Shown in pieces: positions 3 through 19,260 of a DNA stretch of 20,000 nucleotides (its first letter is position 1; each line of letters begins with the position of its first letter). The notes under the pieces were generated by a model. The model had not been told where the DNA came from, did no database searches, and saw only the letters and a list, made by a program, of their open reading frames with translations. The DNA is taken from IMG/VR virus record IMGVR_UViG_3300030117_002316, positions 45,015-65,014 of that record, one strand, 5' to 3'. The stretch is from an uncultured virus (IMG/VR IMGVR_UViG_3300030117_002316) (lineage: Duplodnaviria; Heunggongvirae; Uroviricota; Caudoviricetes). Both the position numbers and the translations under genes were made by a program.

Positions 3-3000
3 GAGAGTCCCTCCTTTTTAGAAGCTGTAGCAGAATCTTTCCCTGCACCTGTAGTCGATCTTGTTTCTGTAATTATGGAGCGCGGTCCTGAAAATCCAGA
101 AGAAGAAGACCTTATGAATCTTATTATGAATTGGGGTCAGATAGAGCATGACGGCGTTAGTCCAGAACTTATGGAAAATACCAGAAGAGAAGCACAGATT
201 AGAACACAGAATGTATCTCGTTCTAATGCACGAAGAAAGATTGACGAATGGAAGGGATCTTTCCAGACCAGAACCATCCTGAATGAAGATGGGAGTATAG
301 ACAGAAGAGCACTTAGAAATGCGTCTATGGATTTACTGAAAGGTTTTGTAGATGTTTTACAGGAAGATCAGCTTGAAGATGGATTTGCCCCACTTTTGGA
401 GTGGGCTTTTAGTAATACCGAAGAATGGGTAAACCAATATGGAAGAGCTTTGGCAAACATAGATCCGGAATTAGCTGAAAATGCGATAGTAGAAATAATA
501 GCAAGACAGTTTGCTGAAAGTGTTGAAGGATCCTTCAATGAGCAAGTTGAACGCAGGAATGGATTAATCAGCGCAGAAGCACAACCGGCTCCTGATATTT
601 ACAGAGTAATGGAAACGATGTTTAATGAAATCTATGGGGGGACTTACGAAGGAGAGTTAGTACAAACTCCATTCGATGATACAACTATACCCTATAAACC
701 AAATGGATGGGAATTGTTATCCGAAGAGGCTCAATCTTCTATTACAGCTCAAGTTATAAGAGAGAAGGCCCCACAGCCAGCTCTCCCTATGTGGGGATTA
801 AAGGGTCTACAGGCTAGAGATCTTCAAAGGGAAGGGTTAGATAAGTTATTAGATGCTTATGACAGACGAAGACAAATAGCTGGAACAGGTGTGGAAAGAA
901 TAACGAATGAGTACTTCCTAACAGACCAAACTAAAAATGTAGTTGATCAAGCTTTGGCTGAACTAAAGTCAGGAGAGCTTTCTCCAGAAACGGATTATCA
1001 ATACATAGCATTAGTATTAAATAAAATGGGGTTAGCAAATATAGATACTACCGTTCCTTTTGGTGCAGGAGATGTGGAAGGATATATTACCGCCCTCACT
1101 AAGGCACAAAGCGTTCTTGATAAAGAGTTTAGTATACTGGAAGATACCTACTATAATTTAGTCGACCCTAGATTTATGTACAATAAATTAATGATGGATG
1201 CTATGGGTGACAAGTTAAGAATGAAGTTTAATAATATTGAAGAGGTTAATGCTTTAGTCTACGATGTTATAAAAAACCCAGATAACTATGATCGAGGTTC
1301 GAGAATGGGGATCCTTACAACTTATAACCTAGCCAATAATCTTTTTTCAGATCTCGAAACAGAAGAGGAAGAAGACACGAAATGGAGAATAGAATTAGGG
1401 GACTTAAGAACCAGTGCTTTAGGTACTAAGGGTAACTTAACAAAACTAGGTAGGACTCCAATGGGTGTTTTGTTTGATTCAAGTGCTGAGTTAAGAAGAG
1501 CGGTAATGGATGACGAACATCCGGTAGCTGTACAAATGCAAGAAGAAGCGTTTATGTATTTTGAAGAAAAGTTTGCTGAAAATTACGCAGGCATAATGGA
1601 AGCAACCGATCCCGAGTGGACTCCTGAGAAAAACGGGATGCCTACTTTCAGGCAGGTATTAGGTCCAAATTTTGTTATTGGAGGTACTGTAAACTGGCAG
1701 GGAATGCCTCAACATACAAGAGCTGCATTAGCTTCTACTTTTATAAAATCACACGTAGATACAAGTCCAGATAAAATGTCTTCTGCTCTTAAGGGATTGC
1801 AAGCTCATATGATAAAAAACATAGGCAGGGTACAAAGCGGAGACGAGTTAGTAAACATGCCAAAAGAAGACCAAGTAGAAGCTTTTGCTACGTTTAATAT
1901 GGCACATTGGTTACTGCAAGATACAAAACGATTTGGTTTAAATACTAAATCTAGAGCACTTATTAAAGAACTTCTCGTAGGAGAAGGACCAAACAAGCAC
2001 CAAAAATTCTTAGCTATGAAAGCTTGGTCTACTGTTGCAAGTAAGTTAGCTGGTCCAGATACATTAGTAGAACTTATAGATGTCGGTGCATTAATGGCAG
2101 CAGAAGATCCTGCTGAAATGCAGCTTATACTAAACGATAGATTAAACCTTCCAAAAAGAACTGCAAATATTTTATATAATTATATCGGCAAAACTTACAC
2201 TGCTCCAGAGGAGACCGCAAATCTTGCATCAGGCGCGAATTCTTTCTATAACGTAAATAGAAAAACTTTAGACATCACGAAATGGGATGATGAATTAAAA
2301 AGATGTAATCTTGCAATTCCTTCGGAAGATGATGATAATGCAGAAGAAGATATTAGAAATATGTATTATGAGTTAAAGGCTATATGTAGACTTCCTGAAG
2401 ACGTTGCTAAGGAGATTGAAGAAACCACTTGGATGTGGATAAGTGTTGACCCCGGATATAATGAATATAAAGAGGGGATTAGGAAAATCATCTATCAGCA
2501 AACAGAAAATGCAGCAACTCGTAGATTACTAGGAACCCTTAACTCTGCTTGGGTTACTTCAATGCCGCCAAGTATGAAATTAAGTCCTGTTGAGTTATTT
2601 GAGTTAGCTGATGTGCATACTACCAATGAGGGATATGTCCCAACAAACAAAGGACATTACATTACAGCTGGAAGAAACGGAGACCAAGACGGCTTAATTG
2701 ACGCAATGGAGAGGTCTGATACTATTCCGCGTCCCGCTACTATTACTCCAAAACAGTGGGAAGATACAGACCCCTCAGAAAGACTAACCATGTCTTTTAA
2801 TAATTTTGCAGGAAATACAGATCCTACCAAAAGACCAATACATTGGGAAAAGTCTTTAGGTCAGGCGAATGAAGCAATGTGGAGAGCGACTTTTCCTGAT
2901 GAAGAGTATACTTACTCAGAAGCTAGGAATTCAGAATTTGCATCTATCCGAAATAAAGCAATTGCTTTTGAAAAGAATGTAGCAAAAGACAGCGGGTATA

Positions 3001-3817
3001 CGATAATGGATAATTCGTGGATGAAATCCCCTCAAGTAAGGGCTACTTTAAAAACTAATTTTAATCCCACTCAGTTAAAGCATATTCAAGCGGCNNNNNN
3101 NNNNCTTTAATAGAAGCTTCTCCTAGAGGAACAACCGAAGCAGAAGTTCAAGTTATATTCGACGAACTTATAGATGGGGTAATAAGAGACTACTCCAGTG
3201 GAGAGACAAGTGCGGCCCAGCTTAGATTGGCAAGAAGAGATAGATTAAGTTTAGAAGGAAGTATTAAAGCATACAAGCCTACTTTACTTGATCTTCATTG
3301 TGAAGTATATGCTAGACTACATGAAAGAATCTTAGAACTACGTCCGGGCTCACGAGGAATCATAGCAAACGCTACTAGTCTGGGGGGAGAAGTACTGGAA
3401 GGAACAAAGATTAGAAAATATCGTACTGCTAAAATAGATTTTAGACAAGTAAACATGGGTGATCCGTCTATCATGTCCCCAGATACGGAAATGAGTATAG
3501 TACTTACTTCAACAAGTGCAGATAAAGGAGTACCTAATGCAAGTTTAGAGCTTGCATGGGTATTGCCTTATCAGTTATTTGGACTAAGAGATGATAAGGG
3601 CAGAATGTATAGAGGATTAGGAGACGCAGGTCCAGCAAGCAGTAAATACCCAATTTCTGATCACGGAGACGGCCTTACTAGAACAGGTGTCGGTCAATAC
3701 AATAAGCCTGAGGCAGCATTAGCATCACCTATTGTACCTATGGGAGATCCTCAATTAACTTATCCGGGGGATCAAATGGGTAGAACCCCAGAACAACGTA
3801 CAGTACCTCAACATTAA
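3..3817 (+). CDS. Large putative internal virion/ejection protein (5'-truncated; interrupted by a scaffold gap)
   Basis: Frame +3 is open from base 3 (ESPSFLEAVAESF...) to the N-run at 3095-3104. After the gap, frame +2 is open from 3107 (LIEASPRGTTEAEVQ...LRLARRDR) to TAA at 3815-3817, so track ORFs 75..3110 and 3227..3817 are most simply one gene. The protein is acidic, helical-looking and Cys-poor, and lies directly upstream of the giant gene. The function is inferred from size, composition and position only. Confidence 0.6.
3095..3104. other. Assembly scaffold gap (10 N)
   Basis: Run of 10 n. The reading frame changes across it, so the true gap length is probably not 10. Confidence 0.95.
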
Positions 3818-3838: not shown

Positions 3839-6800
3839 ATGAGTGACAACACTTGGGCTTATACGCCCATTCCGCTGACTACAGGAAGTATAGTAGAAGA
3901 GGAAATGTTAAGAGAGCGAAGAGATAAAGCTCTTCGGACAGTAGAAAAAATCCCCTTCTATAAAGATACACCTGATTATGCAGCAGCATTTGAATCTCCC
4001 CTTATCTTCCAAGATATAGATTCAGGAGAAATTGTCAGGGGCATGATGCATACAGCAGAAGCTTCTAGGCAACAAATGAAAACTGAACTCACTAGAGGTT
4101 TTACTTCCAGAGATAAGGGTTTCCAGCAAATGGTTTCCCAGCAAGCAGTAGGTGGTAGAGACTTAGAAAAATATGAAAACACTATTTTGGATTTAACCGA
4201 CGCACAAGAAGAAATCTTAACGTCAGGTGCTGAAGGTCCGCAATGGAATCTTGAGTTTTGGAATTATTCGGTAGATGATATTCCAATTTATGATTTAGCT
4301 GTAGGTGGACCAGAAGATATACTAAACGATGAGCCACCAGAGGGATGGAGTGTAGACTCAGCTATAGAAGTCTTTAAGGAATCAGATCCGGAATTATACA
4401 ATATTATGTCTCTATCTTTAGGTGGAGATTCTGGTATTGCTGAAATTGTTAAGGATGCTAGAAACCCTATGGAGTTCTTTGTTAAGCTTCAGCAAAGACA
4501 ACAGCTCCTTGCTATTACTGAAAGTCAACAAGAGTTTGATAGAAGAAGCGGATGGTTCGGAAGACAATACGAATGGGGTAAAAACTTTATTGTAAATGGT
4601 ATTTTAGATGATCCAGATATGGCAGGATCTATCGCTCTTTCTCTAGGTTTATTAGTTACAACAGGTGGTATTGGAACAGTAGGAGCTATAGCTGCTAAGG
4701 TAGGACAGACAGCCTTGAGAGGATATAAGTTCGCAAAGGCAGGCAGAGCTGCCAGAGTAGCGGGTAGAGCTTTAGCAACTAGTGCAAAATACGGACGACA
4801 GGCCCAACATTGGATGCCAGAAAACTTAGGACCAACTTTAGTTAAGAGCGTCTTATTTAAGAATAGGTATCAAAGCTGGAGCGGATTAAAAAGATTTTCT
4901 GTAAATAGACTAGCTGACTCGGCTGAAGGTACAATTAGTGGTGGTATTGCAGAGTTCTTTAACCAGAATAGAATGAAGGGACTTGGGATTACTGATGATA
5001 TCAGTTACACCTCAGTCTTAGCAGAAGCAGCAGTAGAAGCTATGGTGTCTCCTATGATTAACCCCGGTATGGGCCAAGCTATGAAATTAGTTGGAGCCGT
5101 CTCTGCTGTACCCGGAACACTGGGAGCGATGGCTTGGGAAGGAACTATAGGAAAAACTGAACTAGGAGAATTCTTAGGAACTCTTGGAGAGAAAACTATA
5201 AGTATGTGGAATCCTGATTCTGTTATTACTTCTATGGATGCCTACGATAAGAAAGAAGAAATCTTTGCATCTATGAATTCACTATTAGTAGAAGGTGAAT
5301 CTGTAGGAAAGTCTTTAGATGAAAATGAATTATTAGCAGGTCTTTTAGAGACCCTCAAAGTAACTACAGAACTAGATGATCTTACTTTTCTTGATAAGAT
5401 AAACGGTGCTTTAGGAGAGCTAATCCTAGCTAGAGATAATGCAACGGGTACTCAAAAGAAAATGACTGGTCTTGAACTCGCTATTGGGTTAGCTAATCAG
5501 TTGGCTACTAAAGATCAAGACATCAAGGCAGCTATGCAGGGAGATAACTATACTGAGTTTATGTCGGTCTTAGGAACCCAAGTAACTATAGCACAGAATG
5601 CTAGAAGAGAAAACAAAACTATAGATGAGTATTTAGATGATGTGAATGAAAAAGGAAACTATTTCGATCTTCTTCCCGATGTTCTAAAGGAACGGGTTTA
5701 TAAAGAAAACGGCGGCAAAGCGGTAGTAGATAAACTTACTGATAAAGCAAAGAGAGAAAAGGCAGCCGAGATACAGCTTGAGATTGTGAAGAAAACTAGA
5801 GAAGTTCACAACAATTTCCAAGATAGAACAGACGAACAGACAAATAAAATTGAAAAGATTGAAAGCGACGCTAAGAAAGTTGCTAGGAAGCATAAGGTAA
5901 ACCCTCCTGTTATTACCGTTGTTGAAGAGAAAACAGATACAGACTTAACAGATACAGACTTAGCTGATACAGAAGAAGAAGCCATAGTAGAAAAAGAACC
6001 TTCTTCTGGAATGATGCAGCACCAAGAAAACATGGACAAAATTAAAAAGGGTAGAGCAGAGTTAAGAAGGGTAAAAGAAGAACTTAAGAAGAAACATGAT
6101 AATGCTTCCGATGCTGACGCGAAAGAAGCTCTTGAAACAGACATTAAAGAAATTGATAACCTTTTGTCAGAAATGGCCGAACTAAGTAGGAAAGCTACTG
6201 AATCAATGAATGTTTATTTAAGAGAATCGGGGCAGGACAAGAAGCTGATTGAATTAGGTAGGACTCTTTCTACAATTGTAGCAGATGTTAAAAAGTTTGA
6301 AACAGATAAAGTTAAGCCTTGGGAACAAAAAATGCATAAATTCGCTAAACCAAGGCTGGGGATACAGCAAATACAAATTAGGTTTATGCGTGAAAACTTT
6401 AAAGAAGAATATCCAGATGGTCTTCGCTATTCAGATTTAAACTCGGATGAACAAGCAGCTATAAATGATGCTATAGAAGTTCTTGAGGGTAGGGGAAGTA
6501 AGTATTTAGAAAGAGTTAGGGACGGCGAGAAGATAAGCATTAAACAATTGAAGCAAGTTGTCGAAAGAATTGGCAATAGAATGAAAAAAATCCACGATGA
6601 TTTTGAAAAATCCTCAGAAGGACGAGAGTGGGCTGATCATGTAGAAAAACAGAATAGAGCATTAGCAGATTACCAAGTTGCTTTCGCACAATACCAACAA
6701 GAGAACATGGTTAGTGAAGTTATCCGCATGGCGCAAGTCAGGGGCATTGCTGAAACACAAAAACTTAGAAGAGCAAAAGAAGCTCAGCTAAAAGGAATGA

Positions 6801-9800
6801 GAAAAACCGTAGATCAATTTATTAGTGAACATGTTGCTGCTAATCCAGATACCCCCATTTCTGCTAAACAAGTTATAGATAGACTGCCTAGATGGTCAAA
6901 GTTAAGAAAGAAACTTGAGAGTAACAGAAACAAGGGTGAGTCTTCTATTAATGTTGCTGAATTAAAAACTATGATTGATGAAGATTTTGCCGACATGAAA
7001 AAGAATATTCGAGTAGGAAAGCAAGACCCTAGATACAGAAGATTTAAAAGATCAGACGCTGTTAAAGATAGATATAAAGGTCGGTTTGCTAATGAAGTTT
7101 CTGATAGTGAGATTCTTGATGTGGACTATGATCAAGATTGGTTGGTTCAGAATATTGAAATAGGATCTCCTGTTAAGAGTGGAGCTTTATTTTCTATAGA
7201 ACAAGACTCCAAAGCGTTTGCAGAGTTTAAAGCAAACCTATCTGATTTGTCAAATACGGTTGGAGCAATAGACAATGAAGGAACTATTTCTGCTTGGAGA
7301 CTTACTACAAATATGCCTGAGTATTTCTGGGACTTAGGTCTTCCGCTTCACCTTATATTCAGAGAAGCAATGATTGATCCAGAGGGAACTGAGGGAGCGA
7401 GTAAAAAAGGAATTGCTACATATTGGTCAGGCAACGAGGAATTCTCCCACGCTAGGTTTGACTATGCTACGGTAATGAAAATTCTAAACACATGGCAACA
7501 GATTACTAAATCCAGATTGGAAGGAATAGTAGCAGATCACGGTAAGAACATCGCATCAGAACTATTAGAAGAACTTTTAGAAGAAGGAAGCTCTTCTAAT
7601 TTACCAAACTTACACAGAACAGTAGAGTTTTTAAATAACGTAATAGAAGCTGATAGAATATTTAACAAAGAACGATTTGAAGCAGACGGATTCATTTTAA
7701 CAGTTGATGAAGAAACTGGATTCCCTGCATCATTTGCTAAACAAACTGACGGCCATAGATTTGTAGGTGCTGTTAAAAAAGCTATCCACCAAAGAGTTGA
7801 AGTTTTAATGGGACGGAGAAAATATCGAGAAGCTCTTCGTGGGTTAATAGGCCTCGATCCAAAGAAAAAATTTGAGCGCGAATCTCCGGAAGCATTGAAT
7901 AGTAGAATAGCTCAGGAAACAGCCGACATTACAAGTTATATTATGTCAGAACTTTCAGATCTTTTAAATACAGTGGGACCAGAACATCTTAATTATATAG
8001 AATATACTATTGAAGGATTTGGTAACGGAGAGATTTCGTGGTCCTCTCCTAAACAAGCGGGGGATGGGATTGTTGATACCATTATTGGAAAGCTTGTTCC
8101 TGAGAAGAGCAGGCTTTCAGGAGTAGGAGAAGTACCAGATATCCCAACTACAGAATCTAGAGTAATAGGACAATCTGTCAGAACTGCTGCTCCTTTAGAG
8201 GCAGATACAAATGCAGCGGCTCCTGTACCTACTTGGGAAATTAGAAGAGCAGTAGAAAATCATAAGTTCAGATTACGGGTTAGGGAAGTTTTAAAAAGAG
8301 CTGAATCAGGTAAACCTTTAACCCAAGCTGAAAAAGATATCTTATATAACAAAGCACACGCTGAATATAAAGAATCTAGACTTAAGGATAAGATGGATCC
8401 AGTAGCTGACGAAATGGATGTATATGTCGTCCCTCAGATTATAGGAGGCCATCTTCAGGAAAGGATAATGACAAGAGGAGAAGCTAAGGAATTCATGTTA
8501 GAGATTTTCTTAGATATGGCTCATGTTAGTTACTCCTTCATTCAAGATGCTCAGACTATTGCTAACGGTGGAACTCTTAGATTTAAGAATACTGCTGAGA
8601 ATCCACAGCCACTGGCAATAGCCGGACTAAATGTAGGATACGATAATATTGTTCCTTGGGGACGTTTAGGAGAAACCCTTGCTCTGGAAGAGATGTCTCC
8701 CAATTTAAAGGGGATGACTGAAACAGTAGCTACTGCTCACTTAGCTTGGTTGGCCGAACGTAAAGAAAAATGGTTAGCTAATAATCCGGGCAAGGAATGG
8801 AATATAAATGAAATCCTAAGTGACTCAAATCAAATTGACCAAGTAGGTAGTGGACTCCAGATTACTACATTACTTTCCCGTATAGGTGATGAGGGGGTTG
8901 CTAGACAGCTTGGTGAAATAGAAGCACTATTAGCTGGCGACAATGAAAACAGGTATGAGTTTTTAGATGAGAATGGAGATGCTAAAGTAGATGAAGACGG
9001 AAACTTTATTAGCTTAGCTTTAGAAGATATATACGTTAATAGTGGCTTGGGTGCTGTCGCTGCCATGAGAGGGAAGCATTCTGATAATGAGTTTATTCAG
9101 GGCTCTGGTCAGTGGAATACCGTAGTATTTAAATGGCTGGCAGACAATAATATCAATACCGCAGAAGATTTTAGAAATGCTCTTGCTACTATGGAAGGTC
9201 AAGAATTAAAGAAGGCTAAGGCTTGTAGAGAATTCTTTAAGATTCCTGTCTTGCGTCGTTTATATGGTGGTGGTCTTGATTCTTGGAAATTAGAGTTTAT
9301 TGGGGCAAACCCTAGATCTCGTGAAAAGATAAAAGATTTAGAGGCAGCTTTTGCAGATGAGAATTTAAAGTTTACTGACGAAGAATTATTAAACTTAGGT
9401 AAGTCTTGGTTAGGCCACGCTGGTAAAACTGTAGGCCATATCCTTGATGCTGCTATGGGCTTTGAGGGCACGATGAGAAAGAAGGCAATGTCTTTCTATA
9501 CTCAAGGCAGAAGCTCACAAATGCTTTCTGAGGCGTGGAGAGATATTGTACAATCAACTACGATTCCTGCTAGGGATAGCGAGACTGCTCAGGGGGCACA
9601 GGAGTTGGTAGGTGAGGACGGCGGAATTCATGTTATGGACCGCATCGAGCGTGTTAAGAGAGACTTAGATGCTAAATTAGATTGGTTGGCTGAGAGAATG
9701 CCCGGAGATCCTGATAAAAATAGAATTGAATTAGAAGAAAAGTATCAGGATAGATGGGGTAAAGCAAGAGAGTTTATAGAAGAAGTAGAACGCAAGGGTG

Positions 9801-12800
9801 AGAATTTAAATGACGGCAGCCCTAACTGGGAACGTTTACAGGAAATACTTCACGGTAATACTATGAGTTGGGAAAACATTCGACTGTTTAGAGCTACGAA
9901 TATTCTAAACGCAAGTGCATATAGTTTGAATATGCAACGAATGAAGCAAGTAGCTAACGATTTTGGATTCCCTGATTTTGATCCTGAAGACTGGATGGGA
10001 CTTGAAAACCAACTATTATTCCACTTAAACCTCCCAACACAACGTTCTCCAAGATCCTATAGTGTAGGTGGATTAGATACTCACGGTATCTTTGCAAATA
10101 GAGTAGCAGTAAATCCTGAAAAGTTTACTGCTTTCATGCAAGAAGCTAAAGAAAGAGTATTGCGAGAAGAGGGACGAGAGTTTACAAGAGAAGATTTTGA
10201 AGAAGCTCTTGGAGACTGGTTAGAAAATAGAGATCCAGATGCTATGGGTATGTTTGATATGAAGGATAATATCTTTAAGGGAGAAACTCGAGAAGATGTG
10301 GATGCCGAATTAGATAGGCTAATGGATATCGATCAGCTTCTTTATATGGCAGGAGAAGATACTTTAGATCCTAAACTATTCCCAGACTACCATGCAGAAA
10401 GCAGTGAGATAGCAGTAATAGATAGTTTAAATAGGATGTGGTATGAGCATAATGAAAAAAGATTCCGTACTCCAGAAGGAGAAACTGATAGGACTATAGC
10501 AAGCGAAATAGAGTTTGAGGAAAGAATGTTAGCTAGCGGAGAACACGGCAGGGCTATCTTACTCAACAGAGCTAAAATTCTTGGTGGTTATAGAAGCTCT
10601 AAAGTTGCTAAGGCTATGGGCGGAGCTAAGGTTGAATACCACAGACGAGAATACAGTGCTTCTGAAGCTATTGGAACTAAAGAAGAACATGATTTATATA
10701 TGTCTACCGTAGCTCCTCAGGGTCCGTTGTCTTTAACTCCCAAGTATAAACGAATGTCTTATTTCAATAGAGGAATCCCCGCTCTTCAAAGAGAAGGAGT
10801 TCAGAGACAGATAAACGAAGTAATGGCTCCTATTGCCAGAATTGATCCAACGTTAGCAGATACCGCTATCGATGCAAGAGTAGGAGATACTACTAACAAG
10901 GGAGTAAGTATCTTTGAAGATCATCCAGCATTGTTAGGATGGAAGCCGCCTTGGAAAAGAGAGAATCTTCCAATGCCAAGACCTATCAGGATTGATGAAC
11001 TGTTAGAGCTTAATATTGATGATGAGATTGGACGCAAGGCTGTTACCATTCTTCAGGATATGAGAGAGTGGGCTTCTCTTAGACCAGACGTACTTGAAGA
11101 TTTAGAAAGTCCTGAGGGATTGATATATTGGTACGTTACTAGAGAGATAGAACGTCTTAGAGAATCCCAGCTTAATGATTTGCCCGCATATGACGATTTT
11201 AATACAACGGAAGAAGAAGGGCTTGCTTATGCGAGAAGATATAGAGAGAAGTGGTTGAAGGGCTTACACGATCTTACTCATTTCTCCAGAGACATTAAAT
11301 ACGGATCAGCTAAGGGATATACTTTGTCTGATAGTGCTAGAGAACTATCGGTCCAAGCTGCAAAGTATGGGGAAGAAAACATTACAGAGCCAGAATGGTT
11401 AGAGCTTTTGACATCTAGAATGTCTGAGAATAATCCTAGAGGTATTGGTTTGTCCTCGCCTACTAGATTAGATAAAGCACTATCGTTCATTCTTCCTAGA
11501 GAAAACGTAATATTAATAAATAAGTTGGGACAGAACGGAGCTAAAATAGAAACAAACGAGTTAAAAATGTTAGCTCAGTTGATACAGTCTACCGACTTTA
11601 ATCTCCATCTTTTAAGTGTACTGTATACAAACGAAATACTTCCTAGTGTTTTAAAGGAGTTTACGGTTACTCTTCCAGATGGGAGTACAGTTAAACCCTA
11701 TGCTGATAAGAAGTTTAAAGCCTTAGATAGCGAGGGAAATATACGACGTAACTCTAAGGGTGAAGTAATTGAATTAGCTATGTGGGAAGATCCTAATCTA
11801 TGGGAACAATATATAGATCCTAGTCACATCCATGCTATTATCGCTCAAGCTAAAGAGTGGGTAAAGAAGAACGGAAAGGATGACATTGTATTTGATACTT
11901 TGATTGAGACCCAGATTACAAGTGATCCTAAAGTAGCTGGCGGTAAGATGGAAAAGATGAAAGTACATCTTGCTTCTTCGACTCCTGATGCTGTTGGTGG
12001 CAGGCAAGGATCAAAGCTTATGCCTCACGTAATGGGTGGTAGTGTATTTAGAACTGTCAATACGCAGACCGAAGTTACAGGTAAGGGAACACTGGCCCTT
12101 ACTCCAGACAAGGCATTAGAATTATTTGCATACTTAGAATCTATGCCAGTAATTATGAAATCCCGAAGATCTCAGTGGGGGAACATTGCACTTGGGTTTG
12201 AACGAGATCCGGTAACCGGTCTTCCTAGAGAAGTCCAACCTGTTTCAAGAAGTATTGAAGAAGGTCTTGGACATAGCGAACGAGAGATTAGAGAAGCAGA
12301 GATTAAACGAAGCAATGCTCTTGAAAGAATCATAGCCACTAAGGAAGAAACAGGAATTAACGTTAGGATGGTTGCAGATGAGACAAGAACTACTGAGGGT
12401 GGTGCTATAGTTCAAGTTGTAGATTTGGATCACTATTCTAAAGGAGACCATGCTGCAAGAATGGGCCGAAGAGATTCTTGGTTTGAATCATTCCTTAGTC
12501 CGATTGAAAAACAAATTGGATACTTAAAGGCTACAAATATTCATTCAGGAACCTCTCCTGCCTTATTAGCACAACTAGAATCTGTAGTAGAAGGAGCTAG
12601 AGAAGCAAATCTTGCAGACGACGTAGACGGAGATTTAAATGCAGCTGTAGCAATGTGGTTAGGTATTATGCTTCAGTTAGATGATTGGAATAAGTTTATA
12701 CAATTAAAATCATACGGACCAATCTTTAAAACTTTCATTGGTCAGGATAGGTTCTCTAAAGCAACCAATGCTGAAGCTTTTGCTCAAGCTAAAAAATTAG

Positions 12801-15800
12801 CCCGACAAATTAGACAGGTTGCGGGAATAGACTGGCGTGGTGGAGGACTTACTGGACAAAGGCATACGAATTTAATAAACGCAATAAGAGAATGGGCTTC
12901 GCATGCCGCAGAGGAAGAGGGATTAAATGCAGAACTTTCTCCATCAGAAAACTTTAAACAGTGGGTAGCAGAAAATAGAAACACTGTGAGAAAGAGTCTA
13001 GGGATAGATGTTGTAGATTGGGAATCATTAGGCTTTACTTTAGAAAACGATGAGTTAGTATTTGAAGGTATTGGAGATAGCAGAGATCCGGATGTGCCTG
13101 CTGAAGAAGAACTTAGATATATTGTAGAATATGCTATAGGCAAAGAATTATTAGATGTTGAACAAGATAGTAATATCACAACATTTGAAACCGATGAATC
13201 AAGATTAAACTCTACGGGTAAAGATTTAATTCGCTTAGTAAAAGATCCTGATGAATTTAGAAAAGCTGTTAACCGTACTGGAGACATGAACCTTCGTCGA
13301 GTTGCGTCTGATTTAGATGGACTGGAGGGACAAGTATCCCCTCGAAATCTTGAAAGGCTTAGAGCGTTAGTATCCAGAATGTGGGCAATCAACCCAATGA
13401 ATCTTCTTGATTTAGAAATAGGCAGAGACTTTGTAGCTAGAGAAGGAAAGCCTAGAGTAAAAAGATCCGAAGATGGTAAGTTTGTAATACGGATGGGAAA
13501 TAAATTAGACACTCCCCTTAATGACCCAAATGTTGCGTTAGTATTTGCGCACGAACTAAGTCATATGGGTAGAATGAAGTGGGTAGCAGATAATAGTGGA
13601 ACATGGAGACAGTGGGTAGATCTCTATCACAGTAAGGCAGGAAGAACTCTATTAGCTAAAATTGTTCAAGCTTGGCACGGAGGACAGTGGACAGCTGTTG
13701 CTGAACAGGAATATAATTCCTACTTGAAAGATCCAGAAGAATTTATAGCTGCGTTAACTTCTTATTATTTAGTTAACGATTCCCTTCCTGCTCTTGAATT
13801 AGACGAGAACGAAGGCAGAGTTCTGGGAAGGGCTGATTCTATTATTGATCGTATTTTAGATTTTGTAAGACAGCATTTCTTAAGAGTAGCTTCAGTCCTT
13901 ACAAACTTCCACTACGAAGATCCTAAACTTGCAGGACATGTTGAATCCTTAATACAGAAAACACTGGGATGGGATCCTGAAGGAAAGAAAGCATTCACTG
14001 AAATACAAAACGAAGGTACTACTCGTGAAATGTTCTGGGATAAAAGATTTGAAGATCCTGCTAATGATTATATCTATAGCTTAGATGAGCTTCAAACAAA
14101 AATCAAAGAGCACAGTGACTTGGCTGAATTGGGAGAAGACAGAGACGATGCCCAAGATTCTAGATTTCTTAGATTAGATGAAGAGCTTAATGATCCAAGA
14201 TCTGGTGCAGATCACATGCTGGCAGCAGGGCTTTCAAGATATGATTATGAAATAGCCCATGCAGAAAATATGGAAAGATTTGCTGGTCCTAACGGAACGC
14301 TAGACTTATCCGCTATGATGAAATCTATTGATACAAGTAGAGGAGACGCTGTAAACATGACAAGTATGGCGGCTGCTTTACAGTACGCTATGACAAAATT
14401 AGATGACACATACGGTGCTCAATTCCGTCAGGGTGGTGGCGTTGTTCTTCATAAGATTATGAAGGCGGCAACAATGATGCTATCTATGGGACACGGAGAT
14501 CCTGTTAAGTGGGCTAGAGGATTAGCAGACTTAACCGTAGGTAAAACAGGAGCTAACCATACTTGGAATGGTCCTCATCCTTTTGAGGCATTATTGACAA
14601 TGTTAATAAATGATGACATTGCTACAACTATTGGACAGTACACTAATGTACGGGGTACACCGTCTGTTAATCGTAATGTTGTGGGAATGATTGCTACATA
14701 TCAGGAAAGAATCATAGCGTCCCAAACAAAAATCACAAACTTGCTCCAGCCTTGGATGACTAAATTCTTAGGACACGAGGCACACTTTACAACAAAGGCC
14801 AAAGAAAGAAGTGCAAAAATTTGGGATGCTGTTTACTTTGAAATTATGCGCAAGACCGAAAACCCAAACCACGAAGTAGAACTATCAAAGCTTGTTGAAG
14901 ATGGCATGGGAGTAGAGTTAGCTGGTAAGATTAAAACAGAAATAGAAAATATTGCTTTATCATTGTCTAAGTTTATGCAGGACTATATGGTTGCGGGCAA
15001 AGAACTTGGGGTTATCAGTGAGCACACAGCAGACGATACTCACACCCTTCCCTACAAAATGACAAAACGTTTAAACGAATACGATGCTAGATCTGGATTT
15101 ATGAATAACATGGGTACAATGCTTCAAGATAAAATCATAAACACAGAAGAATTAATAGATCCTGTCGTAATGTATTGTGGAGGTCTTCTTCCTAGATTTG
15201 ATACTCTTAAAGGTCTTAAGAATGATTTAGAAGAAATAAAGAATGTAGATAACGGAAGCCTATTCCAGATGATTGCTTATAAGGCAGCAGAAGCTGCTAA
15301 TAAAGCAGAAGGTAAGGACATAGAAGACAGAGCAATAGTGGCAGGTAGAAAGCAGGCTGTTGTTAATCAGTTATATTCTGCGGATGATCACGTTGCTACA
15401 AATGCTTTAGAACACTTTAGACAGGGTGTTTTAACAATCATGCGGGAAATGGGACATAAGAGACTTACTGTAAGTGAACTTAAGAATGACCATAATATTA
15501 ATTGGGATGCTTTTAAAGATAGGTATGAAAGAGCTGCTTCTAAAAATCATGTAGTCCAAGGAGACAGAATACAGGCATTAGACAGCCCAGCATTGGATGC
15601 AATAGTTCCAGACTCTATTCACTACTCCCCCGGAAGAACAACCGCAAGAAAACACCATGTAATGAAAATTAGAAACGCAGTAGATCTTCACTTACATAAC
15701 TTAATGAATCGTGCGTCCGCAGGTATGTACTATACTTGGGATATGTGGTCTATGCCTACTGTTCTTGAAGCAGCCTCTGATCCAGTAATCAGACCTCACC

Positions 15801-17866
15801 TTATTCTTAGTCCTAGAGATATTATGGATGATATGAAAAAAGGCAGAGGCGATAAGATGTTTGAAAGACAGATGATGGTAGATGAGTTTAATATCTTTGG
15901 AGATGTATCTGATCTTCTGAATTTATTCGAAACGGTAGCTAGTAGAGGACCGGGAGAAACCTTCTATAACTACGACGGAACTCCCGTTTCTAGAGAAACC
16001 CAAAACCACATGGTTAAGTCTGCTCAGGTTCTTAGGGGTAAGCACGATGTTACAAGAGGAATTAAGCACTCAGCTGAAGGACCAAGTAGTACTGAAAATA
16101 TCTTTATGCAAATGGCTCCGGGCATTACTAGAACAGTATTCGGAGGAAACCTTGCAATGGCAACTGCTACTGTTGAAGGAATGATGAACGTCCTTCAGGA
16201 AGCTTTGGGCAAGGGTAACATTGTAAACGCACTGCGTGGAATCTTTGCTCCTATCTTAGGTCTTAGTCGAGAGGGACAGGAAAGAGTTGCTAGAGATCTT
16301 GTCCATACCGTAGAGGCTTTAACTAAGGGACACCTTCCTGATCACGAAATGCCAGCTAATGCAATACAACAGAATTGGGCAGTAAAGGCTGTAAACTTTA
16401 CGGGTAGACAGGCAATGCGACCTGCCCAGCATATGTTGAAAACTATTGCAATGTCTAGAGCTGTATCAGCTAGAAACTTTATTACAGACAATCTTTTACA
16501 TAAGACAACTAAGGGTAAAGACGGATCCCGTGTTCCCCGTCTTGAAAGATTGGCTCAGTTAATTAGGGACGAACCTTTAGGGGACGATCCCAAAGCATTA
16601 AGAGATAGAATGCGTAAGGCAGGATTTGGTACGATATTAGCAGGAGACCTCCCCCTTATTTCATATATGTTAAGAGCGGGAGTTTTAAATCTTGAGGACG
16701 GATCCTTTGATAACCTTCAGTCTATGGTTAAAGAAGGAACACAAGAACACAGGTACTACAGTCCGGGTGAGATGTTAGGTAAGTTACACAGGAGTGGTCT
16801 TGAAGTAACCGATCCCGAATATCAATCAAGAAAGAAGATTATCTCTGGTCTTAGGTTTATTGAGAAGGGCTATATCGAAGAAGTGCTGGTGGCTCCTAAT
16901 GCCTTTGATATCTTTACCCCAATGGTCAGTAAGACAGGAGAGGTATCTGGTGTGGGTGCAATGGATACCTTGTTTGAAATCTTCCGGCGATACCCCATGC
17001 TCTTCGTTAGTCAGCATATTTATCGTAAGGCCAATCGTCTTGATTTTACTCGGTTTGCTTTTGGTGCAGCTAGTATGATTATGTTAGATATGGTTTACAT
17101 GCTTGCATTGAGATTAGCTATGGGTGCTTATCCTGAAGACATCTGGGATGAGTTTGAGAAAAACCCTGTACAGTTTACAATGCTGTATGCCAGTAGGCTG
17201 CCTATCCTTGGTCGATACATGGGATTCTTAGCAGAAGCTACAGCTCAGGTTACAAGCATGGCTCAAGGTAGAACCACCAGACAGCCCGGTGGATTTGTCC
17301 CAACGGCAGCAGTATTCACAGCCTTGGGTGGAGGATTAAAAGCAGGACAGTCTTGGTTAGACGACGAACCCCATAAGTGGCAGGACACGATTAATGCTGC
17401 TAGGGTTGTTCCCCTGCTGGGCGAGGGTATCCTTCGCTTAGGGATCTACACAGCAGCCGGAGACAGCATTACAAGACGTAAGCACAGCTCAGGTGGAGGA
17501 GGGTCCGGCTCAGGCTCAGGAGCCCCTATACACTACGGAGTGACCTCTCACGCTCTCAATCAGGGATATAATGTAGAATTACGTAAGCTTCTAGAGGAGT
17601 TCTCTGGGCAGCAGCTTAGGTGGCCTCAGTATGAGGCTCAGCGAAACATGAGTATTCCATTTAGGGATACTACTGTGCCTGAGGTTCCAAAGGAAATGGA
17701 AGGAATGACTCCTCCACCAAGGATGCCCTCCACCTCTGTCCCAGAGCCCGCCCCAGCCCCCGCCTCGCCTCCCGTCCCCGCGCCGACTTCAGTTGAGCCC
17801 GATATGGTAGATCGCCTTAGAGGGCAACAGGGGACATCTGGTAAACTAGCAGACGCACTGGGGTAA
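3839..17866 (+). CDS. 4675-aa giant virion protein; putative virion-encapsidated T7-family RNA polymerase / polyvalent ejection protein with a zincin-type metallopeptidase motif
   Basis: Uninterrupted 14-kb ORF with a strong RBS. Motif A-like IDQVGSGLQI (D1667; T7 FDGSCSGIQH), LEDIY (D1730; T7 VQDIY), motif B REFFKIPVLRRLYG (R1797/K1801/Y1809; T7 RSVTKRSVMTLAYG), HELSH (H3238) plus EEFIA (E3300). Hydrophobic segments near both ends. Only two Cys found by eye. Confidence 0.8.
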   Translation: MSDNTWAYTPIPLTTGSIVEEEMLRERRDKALRTVEKIPFYKDTPDYAAAFESPLIFQDIDSGEIVRGMMHTAEASRQQMKTELTRGFTSRDKGFQQMVSQQAVGGRDLEKYENTILDLTDAQEEILTSGAEGPQWNLEFWNYSVDDIPIYDLAVGGPEDILNDEPPEGWSVDSAIEVFKESDPELYNIMSLSLGGDSGIAEIVKDARNPMEFFVKLQQRQQLLAITESQQEFDRRSGWFGRQYEWGKNFIVNGILDDPDMAGSIALSLGLLVTTGGIGTVGAIAAKVGQTALRGYKFAKAGRAARVAGRALATSAKYGRQAQHWMPENLGPTLVKSVLFKNRYQSWSGLKRFSVNRLADSAEGTISGGIAEFFNQNRMKGLGITDDISYTSVLAEAAVEAMVSPMINPGMGQAMKLVGAVSAVPGTLGAMAWEGTIGKTELGEFLGTLGEKTISMWNPDSVITSMDAYDKKEEIFASMNSLLVEGESVGKSLDENELLAGLLETLKVTTELDDLTFLDKINGALGELILARDNATGTQKKMTGLELAIGLANQLATKDQDIKAAMQGDNYTEFMSVLGTQVTIAQNARRENKTIDEYLDDVNEKGNYFDLLPDVLKERVYKENGGKAVVDKLTDKAKREKAAEIQLEIVKKTREVHNNFQDRTDEQTNKIEKIESDAKKVARKHKVNPPVITVVEEKTDTDLTDTDLADTEEEAIVEKEPSSGMMQHQENMDKIKKGRAELRRVKEELKKKHDNASDADAKEALETDIKEIDNLLSEMAELSRKATESMNVYLRESGQDKKLIELGRTLSTIVADVKKFETDKVKPWEQKMHKFAKPRLGIQQIQIRFMRENFKEEYPDGLRYSDLNSDEQAAINDAIEVLEGRGSKYLERVRDGEKISIKQLKQVVERIGNRMKKIHDDFEKSSEGREWADHVEKQNRALADYQVAFAQYQQENMVSEVIRMAQVRGIAETQKLRRAKEAQLKGMRKTVDQFISEHVAANPDTPISAKQVIDRLPRWSKLRKKLESNRNKGESSINVAELKTMIDEDFADMKKNIRVGKQDPRYRRFKRSDAVKDRYKGRFANEVSDSEILDVDYDQDWLVQNIEIGSPVKSGALFSIEQDSKAFAEFKANLSDLSNTVGAIDNEGTISAWRLTTNMPEYFWDLGLPLHLIFREAMIDPEGTEGASKKGIATYWSGNEEFSHARFDYATVMKILNTWQQITKSRLEGIVADHGKNIASELLEELLEEGSSSNLPNLHRTVEFLNNVIEADRIFNKERFEADGFILTVDEETGFPASFAKQTDGHRFVGAVKKAIHQRVEVLMGRRKYREALRGLIGLDPKKKFERESPEALNSRIAQETADITSYIMSELSDLLNTVGPEHLNYIEYTIEGFGNGEISWSSPKQAGDGIVDTIIGKLVPEKSRLSGVGEVPDIPTTESRVIGQSVRTAAPLEADTNAAAPVPTWEIRRAVENHKFRLRVREVLKRAESGKPLTQAEKDILYNKAHAEYKESRLKDKMDPVADEMDVYVVPQIIGGHLQERIMTRGEAKEFMLEIFLDMAHVSYSFIQDAQTIANGGTLRFKNTAENPQPLAIAGLNVGYDNIVPWGRLGETLALEEMSPNLKGMTETVATAHLAWLAERKEKWLANNPGKEWNINEILSDSNQIDQVGSGLQITTLLSRIGDEGVARQLGEIEALLAGDNENRYEFLDENGDAKVDEDGNFISLALEDIYVNSGLGAVAAMRGKHSDNEFIQGSGQWNTVVFKWLADNNINTAEDFRNALATMEGQELKKAKACREFFKIPVLRRLYGGGLDSWKLEFIGANPRSREKIKDLEAAFADENLKFTDEELLNLGKSWLGHAGKTVGHILDAAMGFEGTMRKKAMSFYTQGRSSQMLSEAWRDIVQSTTIPARDSETAQGAQELVGEDGGIHVMDRIERVKRDLDAKLDWLAERMPGDPDKNRIELEEKYQDRWGKAREFIEEVERKGENLNDGSPNWERLQEILHGNTMSWENIRLFRATNILNASAYSLNMQRMKQVANDFGFPDFDPEDWMGLENQLLFHLNLPTQRSPRSYSVGGLDTHGIFANRVAVNPEKFTAFMQEAKERVLREEGREFTREDFEEALGDWLENRDPDAMGMFDMKDNIFKGETREDVDAELDRLMDIDQLLYMAGEDTLDPKLFPDYHAESSEIAVIDSLNRMWYEHNEKRFRTPEGETDRTIASEIEFEERMLASGEHGRAILLNRAKILGGYRSSKVAKAMGGAKVEYHRREYSASEAIGTKEEHDLYMSTVAPQGPLSLTPKYKRMSYFNRGIPALQREGVQRQINEVMAPIARIDPTLADTAIDARVGDTTNKGVSIFEDHPALLGWKPPWKRENLPMPRPIRIDELLELNIDDEIGRKAVTILQDMREWASLRPDVLEDLESPEGLIYWYVTREIERLRESQLNDLPAYDDFNTTEEEGLAYARRYREKWLKGLHDLTHFSRDIKYGSAKGYTLSDSARELSVQAAKYGEENITEPEWLELLTSRMSENNPRGIGLSSPTRLDKALSFILPRENVILINKLGQNGAKIETNELKMLAQLIQSTDFNLHLLSVLYTNEILPSVLKEFTVTLPDGSTVKPYADKKFKALDSEGNIRRNSKGEVIELAMWEDPNLWEQYIDPSHIHAIIAQAKEWVKKNGKDDIVFDTLIETQITSDPKVAGGKMEKMKVHLASSTPDAVGGRQGSKLMPHVMGGSVFRTVNTQTEVTGKGTLALTPDKALELFAYLESMPVIMKSRRSQWGNIALGFERDPVTGLPREVQPVSRSIEEGLGHSEREIREAEIKRSNALERIIATKEETGINVRMVADETRTTEGGAIVQVVDLDHYSKGDHAARMGRRDSWFESFLSPIEKQIGYLKATNIHSGTSPALLAQLESVVEGAREANLADDVDGDLNAAVAMWLGIMLQLDDWNKFIQLKSYGPIFKTFIGQDRFSKATNAEAFAQAKKLARQIRQVAGIDWRGGGLTGQRHTNLINAIREWASHAAEEEGLNAELSPSENFKQWVAENRNTVRKSLGIDVVDWESLGFTLENDELVFEGIGDSRDPDVPAEEELRYIVEYAIGKELLDVEQDSNITTFETDESRLNSTGKDLIRLVKDPDEFRKAVNRTGDMNLRRVASDLDGLEGQVSPRNLERLRALVSRMWAINPMNLLDLEIGRDFVAREGKPRVKRSEDGKFVIRMGNKLDTPLNDPNVALVFAHELSHMGRMKWVADNSGTWRQWVDLYHSKAGRTLLAKIVQAWHGGQWTAVAEQEYNSYLKDPEEFIAALTSYYLVNDSLPALELDENEGRVLGRADSIIDRILDFVRQHFLRVASVLTNFHYEDPKLAGHVESLIQKTLGWDPEGKKAFTEIQNEGTTREMFWDKRFEDPANDYIYSLDELQTKIKEHSDLAELGEDRDDAQDSRFLRLDEELNDPRSGADHMLAAGLSRYDYEIAHAENMERFAGPNGTLDLSAMMKSIDTSRGDAVNMTSMAAALQYAMTKLDDTYGAQFRQGGGVVLHKIMKAATMMLSMGHGDPVKWARGLADLTVGKTGANHTWNGPHPFEALLTMLINDDIATTIGQYTNVRGTPSVNRNVVGMIATYQERIIASQTKITNLLQPWMTKFLGHEAHFTTKAKERSAKIWDAVYFEIMRKTENPNHEVELSKLVEDGMGVELAGKIKTEIENIALSLSKFMQDYMVAGKELGVISEHTADDTHTLPYKMTKRLNEYDARSGFMNNMGTMLQDKIINTEELIDPVVMYCGGLLPRFDTLKGLKNDLEEIKNVDNGSLFQMIAYKAAEAANKAEGKDIEDRAIVAGRKQAVVNQLYSADDHVATNALEHFRQGVLTIMREMGHKRLTVSELKNDHNINWDAFKDRYERAASKNHVVQGDRIQALDSPALDAIVPDSIHYSPGRTTARKHHVMKIRNAVDLHLHNLMNRASAGMYYTWDMWSMPTVLEAASDPVIRPHLILSPRDIMDDMKKGRGDKMFERQMMVDEFNIFGDVSDLLNLFETVASRGPGETFYNYDGTPVSRETQNHMVKSAQVLRGKHDVTRGIKHSAEGPSSTENIFMQMAPGITRTVFGGNLAMATATVEGMMNVLQEALGKGNIVNALRGIFAPILGLSREGQERVARDLVHTVEALTKGHLPDHEMPANAIQQNWAVKAVNFTGRQAMRPAQHMLKTIAMSRAVSARNFITDNLLHKTTKGKDGSRVPRLERLAQLIRDEPLGDDPKALRDRMRKAGFGTILAGDLPLISYMLRAGVLNLEDGSFDNLQSMVKEGTQEHRYYSPGEMLGKLHRSGLEVTDPEYQSRKKIISGLRFIEKGYIEEVLVAPNAFDIFTPMVSKTGEVSGVGAMDTLFEIFRRYPMLFVSQHIYRKANRLDFTRFAFGAASMIMLDMVYMLALRLAMGAYPEDIWDEFEKNPVQFTMLYASRLPILGRYMGFLAEATAQVTSMAQGRTTRQPGGFVPTAAVFTALGGGLKAGQSWLDDEPHKWQDTINAARVVPLLGEGILRLGIYTAAGDSITRRKHSSGGGGSGSGSGAPIHYGVTSHALNQGYNVELRKLLEEFSGQQLRWPQYEAQRNMSIPFRDTTVPEVPKEMEGMTPPPRMPSTSVPEPAPAPASPPVPAPTSVEPDMVDRLRGQQGTSGKLADALG
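5933..5973 (+). repeat. 15-bp coding tandem repeat (TDTDL x2 plus a partial copy)
   Basis: ACAGATACAGACTTA twice exactly, then GCTGATACAGA, in an acidic linker of the giant protein. Confidence 0.85.
8837..9268 (+). other. Single-subunit RNAP palm/fingers core (motif A, DIY, motif B) within the giant protein
   Basis: D-QVG-SGLQ at 8837, DIY at 9026 and R-x3-K-x7-YG at 9227-9268 occur in T7 order. Asp-to-Lys spacing is 134 aa versus 94 aa in T7 (D537-K631). Confidence 0.8.
13550..13750 (+). other. Zincin-like metallopeptidase motif within the giant protein
   Basis: LVFAHELSH (HExxH at 13550-13564) followed about 60 aa later by PEEFIAA (13736). This is the typical pattern of MPTase domains in phage polyvalent proteins. 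Confidence 0.75.
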
Positions 17867-17893
17867 ATCGACTAGGGGGTCACGAATTTGTCT

Positions 17894-17930
17894 GGGGGTG
17901 TAATGGTTGCATGGAGCAACCTTATCCCCC
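17894..17930. promoter_or_regulatory. Inverted repeat/hairpin between the giant gene and the early-type gene block
   Basis: GGTTGC-ATGGA-GCAACC core (17905-17921), extendable by TAA/TTA and GGGGG/CCCCC. No U-tract follows. Function unknown. Confidence 0.5.
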
Positions 17931-17958
17931 CTTACCCCCCTTGTCAAAGGAGACAAGA

Positions 17959-18255
17959 ATGAAGAAGACAGTACTCATCGTACTGGTCGTGGCATTCCTT
18001 GTTATTGTACCACAGCGTGCTGTGCGTACAATCAATGAGTGTGTCATTGCCAACCTTGGCACATCCATCTTGGAGTGCCAGAGCGTTCGAGATGTCGCTG
18101 TGCTCGGCGAGTTCCTCGTCGAGAACACAGTCGACGGCTGGATTCCCTACCAGATCGGGTTGGATCTTATCGATCCAAGCTGCTGGTTTGGTTCGCCATC
18201 TCACGAGATGGATGATCCGAACGAGCAGTACGACATGCCTCAGTGGGTGCACTGA
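17959..18255 (+). CDS. Hypothetical 98-aa protein with an N-terminal signal/membrane anchor
   Basis: RBS AAAGGAGACA at 17946-17955 favours ATG 17959 over the track's 17911. MKKTVLIVLVVAFLVIVP is a basic-hydrophobic leader and the C-terminus is acidic. Confidence 0.75.
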   Translation: MKKTVLIVLVVAFLVIVPQRAVRTINECVIANLGTSILECQSVRDVAVLGEFLVENTVDGWIPYQIGLDLIDPSCWFGSPSHEMDDPNEQYDMPQWVH

Positions 18256-18467
18256 TGGCAAAGCGTAGCTTCAAAGTCCACGATGTTGTGACCCTGCCGC
18301 CTCGCGGTGGGGCACAGCATCGTGGACGAGGCATCGTCGTCAAGGTCACGAAGAAGAAGGTAACTGTGTTACCGATCCCCGACCACTCGTCGGGGAACCT
18401 CACGTTTAAGCCAGACCAGCTCCGGTACTGGCGAAAGGGCAACCGAAACCGGAGAATGCACGAATGA
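18255..18467 (+). CDS. Hypothetical 70-aa basic protein, possible KOW/SH3-like beta-barrel
   Basis: TGATG stop/start overlap with the upstream gene. Pattern FKVHDVV...GRGIVVKV...KVTV...FKPDQL resembles small SH3/KOW folds. Lys/Arg-rich. Confidence 0.7.
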   Translation: MAKRSFKVHDVVTLPPRGGAQHRGRGIVVKVTKKKVTVLPIPDHSSGNLTFKPDQLRYWRKGNRNRRMHE

Positions 18468-18470
18468 CCA

Positions 18471-18500
18471 GCCCATGCTGCCTTAACGGGTAGCATGGGC
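18471..18500 (+). terminator. 13-bp GC-rich stem-loop (terminator or RNA-processing hairpin)
   Basis: GCCCATGCTGCCT-TAAC-GGGTAGCATGGGC with two G.U pairs, 3 nt after the stop at 18467. It is followed only by a weak ATTCTATAT tail. Confidence 0.55.
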
Positions 18501-18523
18501 ATTCTATATAGGAGGCCTGATGG

Positions 18524-19030: not shown

Positions 19031-19040
19031 CAATCTCAAC

Positions 19041-19237: not shown

Positions 19238-19260
19238 AAATTCCGTTTGGAGACCATCGC

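Follow-up and report, generated by a model that had tools for sequence, protein, structure and literature searches.

A giant predicted ejection protein of an uncultured T7-like podovirus with a core probably derived from a T7/N4-type polymerase

In a 20,000-nucleotide (nt) stretch of an uncultured virus genome (the window, which is the final 20 kb of the 65,014-bp contig IMGVR_UViG_3300030117_002316 of IMG/VR), one giant open reading frame (ORF) encodes a protein of 4675 amino acids (aa; P0002) whose central part probably descends from a single-subunit RNA polymerase (RNAP) of the T7/N4 type, an ancestry that refers to the fingers with their motif B. That the giant protein is also an active RNAP which is injected into the host has, judged from sequence, about an even chance of being right. 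A sequence-only reading of the window had noticed three ordered resemblances to T7 RNAP and, indeed, the strings DQVGSGLQI, EDIY and REFFKIPVLRRLYG were found at window positions 8837-9268 (+) in the frame of the giant ORF, with the residue numbers that had been assigned to them (D1667, E1729-Y1732 including D1730, R1797, K1801 and Y1809; all features are listed in Table 1). The third string has the R-x3-K-x7-Y-G arrangement of motif B, which lies on the O-helix of the fingers in this enzyme class. The motif A-like D1667 sits 130 aa before R1797, compared with 90-110 aa in the class. In 20,000 shuffles of the 4675-aa protein the single patterns were present in 676 (R...K.......YG), 936 (D...SG.Q) and 1038 shuffles ([QE]DIY), and the ordered triple of D...SG, [QE]DIY and R...K.......YG, with 60-200 aa from first to last, was found in 0 of 20,000. 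This shows that the triple is not an effect of composition and speaks to composition only, because the patterns were set after the sequence had been seen.

The motifs were then judged by their conservation in the protein family. Apart from the giant protein itself, three relatives were returned by a word-indexed search, and a profile search of 1.84 billion representatives yielded 75 proteins at E ≤ 0.001, 60 at ≤ 1e-10 and 38 at ≤ 1e-30, among them about 20 full-length giants of 3526-5825 aa, the remainder being mostly fragments. The region aa 1131-2330 was aligned in 24 rows, comprising the query, P0006-P0008 and the 20 of the 75 profile matches with the best coverage; the remaining 55 matches, for the most part short fragments, were not included. 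The rows shared 19-50% identity with the query. Only 10 of the 1200 positions were invariant in all 24 rows (P1532, D1570, G1600, P1606, D1667, R1797, K1801, Y1809, N2021 and R2072), and identical invariant columns emerged from a second alignment, which a tool had made from full-length rows. The four residues that the sequence-only reading had named for such a check, D1667, R1797, K1801 and Y1809, are all among them, and D1730 is identical in 23 of the rows. Motif B has the family form R-x-x-[FVYW]-K-x-P-x-[ML]-[RT]-x-x-Y-x-[GA]. S1671 is kept in 18 of the 20 full-length members; because G1672 and Q1674 vary, SGxQ is no signature of the family.

The motifs of gp50, the virion RNA polymerase (vRNAP) of phage N4, were read directly as YVEAD559GVTNG, NDLY610-612, R666GIAK670NPLTITIY678G and KIFD951G. 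Therefore, motif B of the giant family shares with N4 the K-x-P and the exact spacing of R, K and Y, its R-x3-K-x-P-x5-Y-G being spaced identically to N4 'RGIAKNPLTITIYG'. The family was also compared by hhalign with a profile built from 13 diverse vRNAP regions of Schitoviridae, and the best local match paired query 461-685 with N4 mini-vRNAP 461-684 at E 0.003, with an hhalign probability of 10%. In this alignment D-x-Y faces D-L-Y and the two B motifs coincide, with motif A misplaced. With match columns only, the score was 37.7; the reversed template scored 15.9 and 40 shuffles of 20-column blocks scored 19.8-27.2, so that 0 of 40 reached the observed value. The motif B block alone, scanned against whole profiles, found its best matches at T7 627-648 and N4 663-684 (E 0.002 each).

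The predicted structure points to the same segment. AlphaFold2 models of aa 1131-2330 (me45f5587fa21; mean predicted local distance difference test score (pLDDT) 70.1, predicted template modelling score (pTM) 0.60) and of aa 1501-2700 (mean pLDDT 61.3, pTM 0.46) are both almost wholly helical. In both models aa ~1728-1868 can be superposed on the fingers of two RNAPs, that of T7 and the human mitochondrial enzyme (POLRMT); the D1667 stretch is of low confidence. In VIA comparisons with both models these two enzymes stood ahead of nearly all other PDB chains, and in a second look the top 6 of 979 chains were all T7 RNAP or POLRMT. The longest structural alignment covers aa 1662-1890, from just before D1667, past EDIY, to beyond motif B; the alignment with POLRMT 917-1058 begins at model residue 162, which is aa 1662 and lies five residues before D1667. 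EDIY falls at the start of the match to T7 568-689. Since T7 568-571 is QDIY and T7 627-640 is motif B, the fold match lands exactly where the motifs predict. N4 mini-vRNAP was not among the VIA matches listed.

An enzyme of the T7/N4 type needs a second catalytic aspartate, motif C, downstream of motif B. Between motif B and aa 2330, position 2143 comes closest, with an acidic residue in 23 of 24 rows. Beyond that range, 20 of 20 rows carry D or E at position 2586, where no profile recognised a motif C context. Three candidates were rejected: ILDAAMG near aa 1869 and FDPED near 2047 are not conserved, and GMFDMKDN (2137-2144) is acidic at 2143 in the 23 rows just mentioned and at 2140 in 17 of 24. 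A candidate of another kind is the invariant D1570, located 97 aa before D1667, in a block with the family consensus s-x-I-[HQ]-D-[QSA] (AFIHDS in one member). Searched against the whole T7-like profile, this block has its best match at T7 806-814, SFALIHDSF, which is motif C (E 0.06-0.1); it had no match in the Schitoviridae profile, and model confidence is low there. The sequence thereby suggests that the motif order is permuted to C-like, A-like, B. Permuted palm-motif order occurs in some viral RNA-dependent polymerases; we know of no such case in the T7/N4/family A class.

Two further blocks with invariant residues lie downstream of motif B. For aa 2005-2100 the best match in the whole T7-like profile was T7 316-337, 'YKAINIAQNTAWKIN' (score 25.5; maximum of 60 block-shuffles 23.9), which is resembled by the N2021 block 'FRATNILNASAYSLN', and the best match in the whole Schitoviridae profile was N4 423-447 (sub-profile score 19.4, reached by 3 of 60 shuffles). 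The spacing of the block from R2072 to P2093 equals that of N4 R424 ... N432-P-Q-S435 ... R440 ... P445 in the T/DxxGR-NPQ region. Each of the two matches is weak (E 0.1-0.3). At the canonical place of T/DxxGR, upstream of motif A, 'LRF ... NPQP' was found only in P0002 and P0006. An internal duplication was looked for by self-comparison of aa 1400-1990 with 1990-2900, which gave no match (E 0.8).

Several observations weigh against the reading of the central region as a polymerase. By sequence, the giant protein had no relevant match in Pfam (E ≤ 1), PHROGs (E ≤ 0.01) or NCBIfam, and PDB gave nothing relevant with the sequence or with a 4-row profile. PF00940 did not match it at E ≤ 1, and the same Pfam library scored the phage's own 789-aa RNAP at 8e-77; likewise the N4 vRNAP families PF21769, PF21894, PF21624 and PF21867 gave no match at E ≤ 1, and all four match the N4-like control P0084. 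Comparison by hhalign was not significant with a single N4 sequence or a shallow N4 profile (a set of 71-100% identity), nor with a 12-member T7-like profile, where the best match was motif B at E 0.13. The motif A block found no motif A in the T7-like or the Schitoviridae profile, so the resemblance to T7 that had been proposed for all the motifs is upheld by conservation, profile and fold for motif B and DIY and is weaker for motif A. No Asp or Glu is invariant between aa 1810 and 2330 (24 rows), which is where motif C would be expected, and the T/DxxGR-like and 'LN..W.IN'-like blocks stand downstream of motif B, in non-canonical order. In both models the stretch with D1570 and D1667 has a pLDDT below 50, the motif A stretch forms no strand and there is no confident palm; palm and thumb were not recovered, the VIA matches covering the fingers only. 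Because of the low pLDDT around D1570 and D1667, no palm can be judged. Foldseek found nothing in PDB at E ≤ 0.001 with either model, and the best row in BFVD was an uncharacterised viral protein at E 0.002, with nothing at E ≤ 0.001. Finally, two T7-type RNAPs are already encoded in the genome, and a third is not obviously needed. Because no curated family test gave a match and canonical motif C was not found after motif B, the giant protein is classed as one that works like the PF00940 and N4 vRNAP families and is a member of neither.

The same observations bear on an explanation that we consider unlikely, namely that the module is of polymerase descent, no longer polymerises and now serves the ejectosome by binding nucleotides or nucleic acids, for example by gripping the leading DNA end or by recruiting host or phage polymerase in the way of T7 gp16. 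The fold is recognisable in the fingers segment only, which fits this explanation as do the missing canonical motif C, the lack of a confident palm and the two ordinary T7-type RNAPs; moreover, T7 gp16 recruits host RNAP according to PMC13434306. However, the NTP- and metal-binding D, R, K and Y and the IHD-like D are strictly invariant across 24 members of ~20-30% identity; such invariance is predicted by selection on catalysis, and dead enzymes usually lose these residues. Quite improbable is an ordinary, very large helical ejection protein of the IVP-D/gp16 type that has no polymerase ancestry and resembles polymerases by convergence or chance, in which case the low-Z helical match would be coincidental and the invariant residues would serve another purpose. 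Rx3Kx7YG is common to family A DNA polymerases and T7-type RNAPs. This and the variable SGxQ would also allow an active template-dependent enzyme of other specificity (family A-like DNA polymerase, primase-like, or terminal transferase on the incoming genome), which is very improbable since T7 RNAP and POLRMT make up all of the top structural matches with no family A DNA polymerase among the 50 rows listed, the closest profile match is N4-like vRNAP and the genome has its own PolA (PF00476, E 1e-46). The preference for RNAP over family A DNA polymerase, which had been drawn from SGxQ and DIY, is thus backed by the structural matches, whereas its SGxQ part did not hold.

We return to the giant protein as a probable descendant of T7/N4-type polymerases that may be injected. 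Cysteine avoidance and synteny are the two observations that point to packaging and ejection. The four ORFs upstream and the giant ORF contain 0, 0, 0, 2 and 2 Cys, respectively (giant ORF: 2 in 4675 aa), and the phage's cytoplasmic enzymes contain 1.6-3.3% Cys. In the family, 12 of the 20 full-length members are free of Cys and the maximum is 7 in ~4700 aa; the N4-like vRNAP P0084 has 0 in 3500. The absence of Cys from N4 vRNAP is tied to its passage through tail and periplasm in PMC3821669. The gene order was the same in 6 of 6 IMG/VR relatives, with Cys-free ORFs followed by the giant gene, a gap of ~1 kb and a GC-rich region (GC content 0.50-0.52) of Cys-rich ORFs.

Table 1. Features of the giant gene and its surroundings (window positions, unless marked as genome positions)
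Feature	Position	Strand	Remark
Upstream ejection-block gene	3..3817	+	Frame shifted by a run of 10 N at 3095-3104 in the record
Giant ORF (P0002), 4675 aa	3839..17866	+	Uninterrupted; last and largest gene of the cysteine-poor ejection-protein block
N-terminal domain, aa 1-430, conserved; contains hydrophobic stretches rich in Gly and Ala	3839..5128	+	About 30 positions conserved in 18 or more of the 20 full-length members
Central conserved region, aa 1131-2330	7229..10828	+	Query of the profile searches and of one AlphaFold model
Block SYSFIQDAQ with D1570, candidate IHD-like motif C	8528..8554	+	D1570 identical in 24/24 rows
Motif A-like DQVGSGLQ with D1667	8837..8860	+	D1667 identical in 24/24 rows
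Fingers-like helical segment, aa 1728-1868	9020..9442	+	Superposed by VIA-align
EDIY element (D1730, Y1732)	9023..9034	+	D1730 identical in 23/24 rows; aligns with N4 NDLY in hhalign
Motif B REFFKIPVLRRLYG (R1797, K1801, Y1809)	9227..9268	+	R, K and Y identical in 24/24 rows
Block FRATNILNASAYSLN with N2021	9887..9931	+	N2021 identical in 24/24 rows; resembles T7 316-337 YKAINIAQNTAWKIN
Block R2072 ... G2083 ... R2088 ... P2093	10052..10117	+	R2072 identical in 24/24 rows
HExxH ... E zincin-like motif (H3238, E3239, H3242, E3301)	13550..13741	+	All four residues identical in 20/20 full-length members
Conserved C-terminal region, aa ~3900-4570	15536..17548	+	Many positions kept in 19/19 rows
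Compact T7-type RNAP gene, 599 aa	19261..20000, on to genome 1-1159	+	Crosses the ends of the circular contig

Between the N-terminal domain and the central region of the giant protein, aa ~500-1100 are variable, charged and coil-like with zero conserved positions. The zincin-like motif region had no match in Pfam or, by sequence, in PDB; it may serve self-processing after ejection or the cleavage of cell wall or host proteins. The low-complexity C-terminal end (window 17380-17866, aa ~4515-4675) carries a GGGGSGSGSG run and a tail rich in Pro, Ala and Ser (PPPRMPSTSVPEPAPAPASPPVPAP).

Distant partial relatives of 541-4035 aa (P0054, P0066, P0073-P0075 and P0082) share only aa ~1377-1597, a sub-region which holds FGNGxIxW, D1413, R1480 and P1532 and may be a separate, more widespread domain. 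That these six proteins (P0054, P0066, P0073, P0074, P0075 and P0082) are N4-like was rejected by Pfam. Ten family members scanned for Pfam domains had none except one weak RNase_H_2 match in P0032; a weak match to RNase_H_2 was also seen in the partial relative P0073, and P0007 carries the precomputed Pfam family PF18760. These extra modules of P0007, P0032 and P0073 point, at the level of sequence, to a 'polyvalent' architecture of variable cargo. Searches with three parts of the giant protein by tblastn gave no match in 50,697 deposited phage records, and ESM Atlas had no usable match for the window fragment or for P0022. In the literature, with supplements and most subscription journals outside the scope, no description of the family was found.

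The two ends of the contig overlap by 99 nt with one mismatch, so that it closes into a circle of 64,915 bp. Its large ORFs all share the same strand and, to judge from the Pfam content, the genome is that of a ~65-kb T7-like podovirus. It encodes a T7-type portal, scaffold, capsid, tail tube, nozzle, beta-helix fibre and T7-type terminase, as well as a T7-type primase-helicase, a family A DNA polymerase, an exonuclease and a ribonucleotide reductase. The 789-aa T7-type RNAP is encoded at genome 8344-10713 (PF00940, E 8e-77), and a T7-type RNAP of ~820-840 aa is also present in 3 of 5 related records, the three more complete ones. The terminase has at most ~41% identity to those of deposited phages, the nearest being from Pelagibacter, Roseobacter and Ralstonia T7-like phages. 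Its gene is followed by ORFs of 245, 346, 213 and ~1304 aa and then by the giant gene. The last of the four has 2 Cys in 1304 aa; ORFs 3-3110 and 3107/3227-3817 on either side of the run of N are probably a single gene, and relatives have one Cys-free ORF of 1270-1426 aa at its place. Three adjoining tRNA genes were found by ARAGORN at genome 12973-13200: Met (CAT), Arg (TCT) and Leu (TAA).

From the 3' end of the giant gene onwards (window ~16500-20000, genome 1-5000) the GC content rises sharply from ~0.39 to 0.52-0.57, with ~0.55 directly behind the gene. Such a step, to 0.50-0.52 in the ORFs after the giant gene, was also found in the relatives L017, L018, L019 and L020. The first large ORF of the GC-rich region is the gene of the 599-aa RNAP, which is the phage's second ordinary single-subunit RNAP, beside the 789-aa one. 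Its motifs A, B and C are clear (IDAAASG, RQAMKPGIVAGGYG, PNLTHAMD and IAIHDSVG), it contains Cys, and its C-terminal part gave a weak match to PF00940 (E 6e-4). A 602-aa homolog with 42% identity lies at the same place in the relative G001 (L017/G001: E 4e-88). A more diverged version of 591 aa in L018/L019 was identified by motif reading only and is not recognised by Pfam.

Stem-loops abound in the stretch that separates the giant gene from the 599-aa RNAP gene (17867-19260), with 6 terminator-like sites vs 1.0 ± 1.0 in shuffles; they may be hairpin promoters of the N4 kind or terminators. One of them, at 18471-18500, has a 13-bp stem; another, at 19209-19227, has an 8-bp stem that closes a 3-nt loop and immediately precedes the 599-aa RNAP gene. 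A 6-bp hairpin with differing stems, followed by the word T-CCCCCC-[TG]TA, was seen at window 17905-17935, in L017 at 20585-20614 and in L020 at 21792-21820, and this conserved word follows the stop codon of the giant gene by ~40-60 nt in 3 of the 4 genomes that were compared. Its copy in the window coincides with the beginning of a 114-aa ORF (MEQPYPPLPP...) and may simply be coding. A search for repeated promoter-like words in the whole genome and the early region found nothing convincing, and a sigma-70 scan of 17700-19400 gave 1 site vs 0.9 expected.

Taken together, these data are consistent with the following model. The giant protein would belong to the ejection (internal virion) proteins of its T7-like podovirus; it would be housed in the capsid and leave through the tail together with the DNA, and its cargo would be a highly diverged T7/N4-type polymerase module of aa ~1540-1900 or further. 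After ejection, the N- and C-terminal parts could help to build a trans-envelope channel. In the module, R1797 and K1801 on an O-helix-like helix would bind nucleoside triphosphates (NTPs), Y1809 would position the incoming nucleotide, and D1667 could act together with D1570 as metal ligands. The template would be the genes that enter first, that is the GC-rich region just downstream of the giant gene, from which the 599-aa RNAP would be made first and the 789-aa T7-type RNAP next, in an N4-like polymerase cascade. Host RNAP could equally transcribe the GC-rich region, and the analogy with the N4 cascade is suggestive. The most far-reaching form of the model, in which the giant protein is a third lineage of single-subunit RNAPs, injected and permuted (IHD D1570, D1667, motif B, T/DxxGR-like), and starts a three-polymerase cascade from the giant to the 599-aa to the 789-aa enzyme, is in our view unlikely.

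If the giant protein is indeed active and injected, virion-delivered single-subunit RNAPs would be no peculiarity of N4-like phages and would recur, with very different sequence, in T7-like phages of high abundance in metagenomes (75 relatives in 1.84 billion representatives, none in 50,697 deposited phage genomes). The view of early transcription and host take-over in the T7-like group would then change, a host-independent polymerase would become available to biotechnology, and nature would have provided a test of how much rearrangement the T7/family A active site tolerates. Should the protein be inactive, it still represents a large, completely unannotated class of ejection proteins with an invariant zincin motif and a core of probable polymerase origin.

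Among known systems, the vRNAPs of N4 (gp50; mini-vRNAP, residues 998-2103) and other Schitoviridae are similar in being giant cysteine-free proteins encoded by the last and largest gene of an ejection operon. In PMC13434306 (2026), gp50 is described as the third protein of a three-gene ejection operon, in which the polymerase domain precedes a C1 domain containing a conserved HExxH and a large helical C2, and the injected enzyme as transcribing the genes of the small T7-like RNAPII. The domain order is alike, with an N-terminal domain, a polymerase-like region in mid-protein, HExxH and a helical C-terminus, and so are motif B (R-x3-K-x-P-x5-Y-G), the D-x-Y between motifs A and B and the colinear profile match. 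Unlike gp50, the giant protein is ~1200 aa longer, has ~900 aa more between motif B and HExxH, lacks a motif C after motif B and has its T/DxxGR-like block out of order; the virus has morphogenesis genes of the T7 and not of the N4 type, and two T7-type RNAPs where N4 has RNAPII and host RNAP. Unlike T7 RNAP and human mitochondrial RNAP, the giant protein does not match PF00940 and appears to have the order C-like, A-like, B instead of A, B, C, and its polymerase-like module, unlike T7 RNAP, sits inside a predicted virion protein of 4675 aa. In its layout it resembles T7 gp16/IVP-D as a large helical protein that ends a block of internal virion genes; unlike there, the block follows the terminase gene and does not lie between the tail tube and fibre genes. 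In size, the giant protein is 3.5 times T7 gp16. Hardies et al. 2016 (PMC4819975) proposed that IVP-D homologs carry cargo domains bound for the cytoplasm, N4 vRNAP being their example. A polymerase within a giant structural or ejected protein is also found in Thermus phage P23-45, whose RNAP is fused to the tape measure protein; according to bioRxiv 10.1101/2022.12.01.518664, this enzyme is a two-barrel RNAP of a different fold class in a long-tailed phage, unlike the giant protein, and it transcribes from the virion the pre-early genes, another polymerase gene among them.

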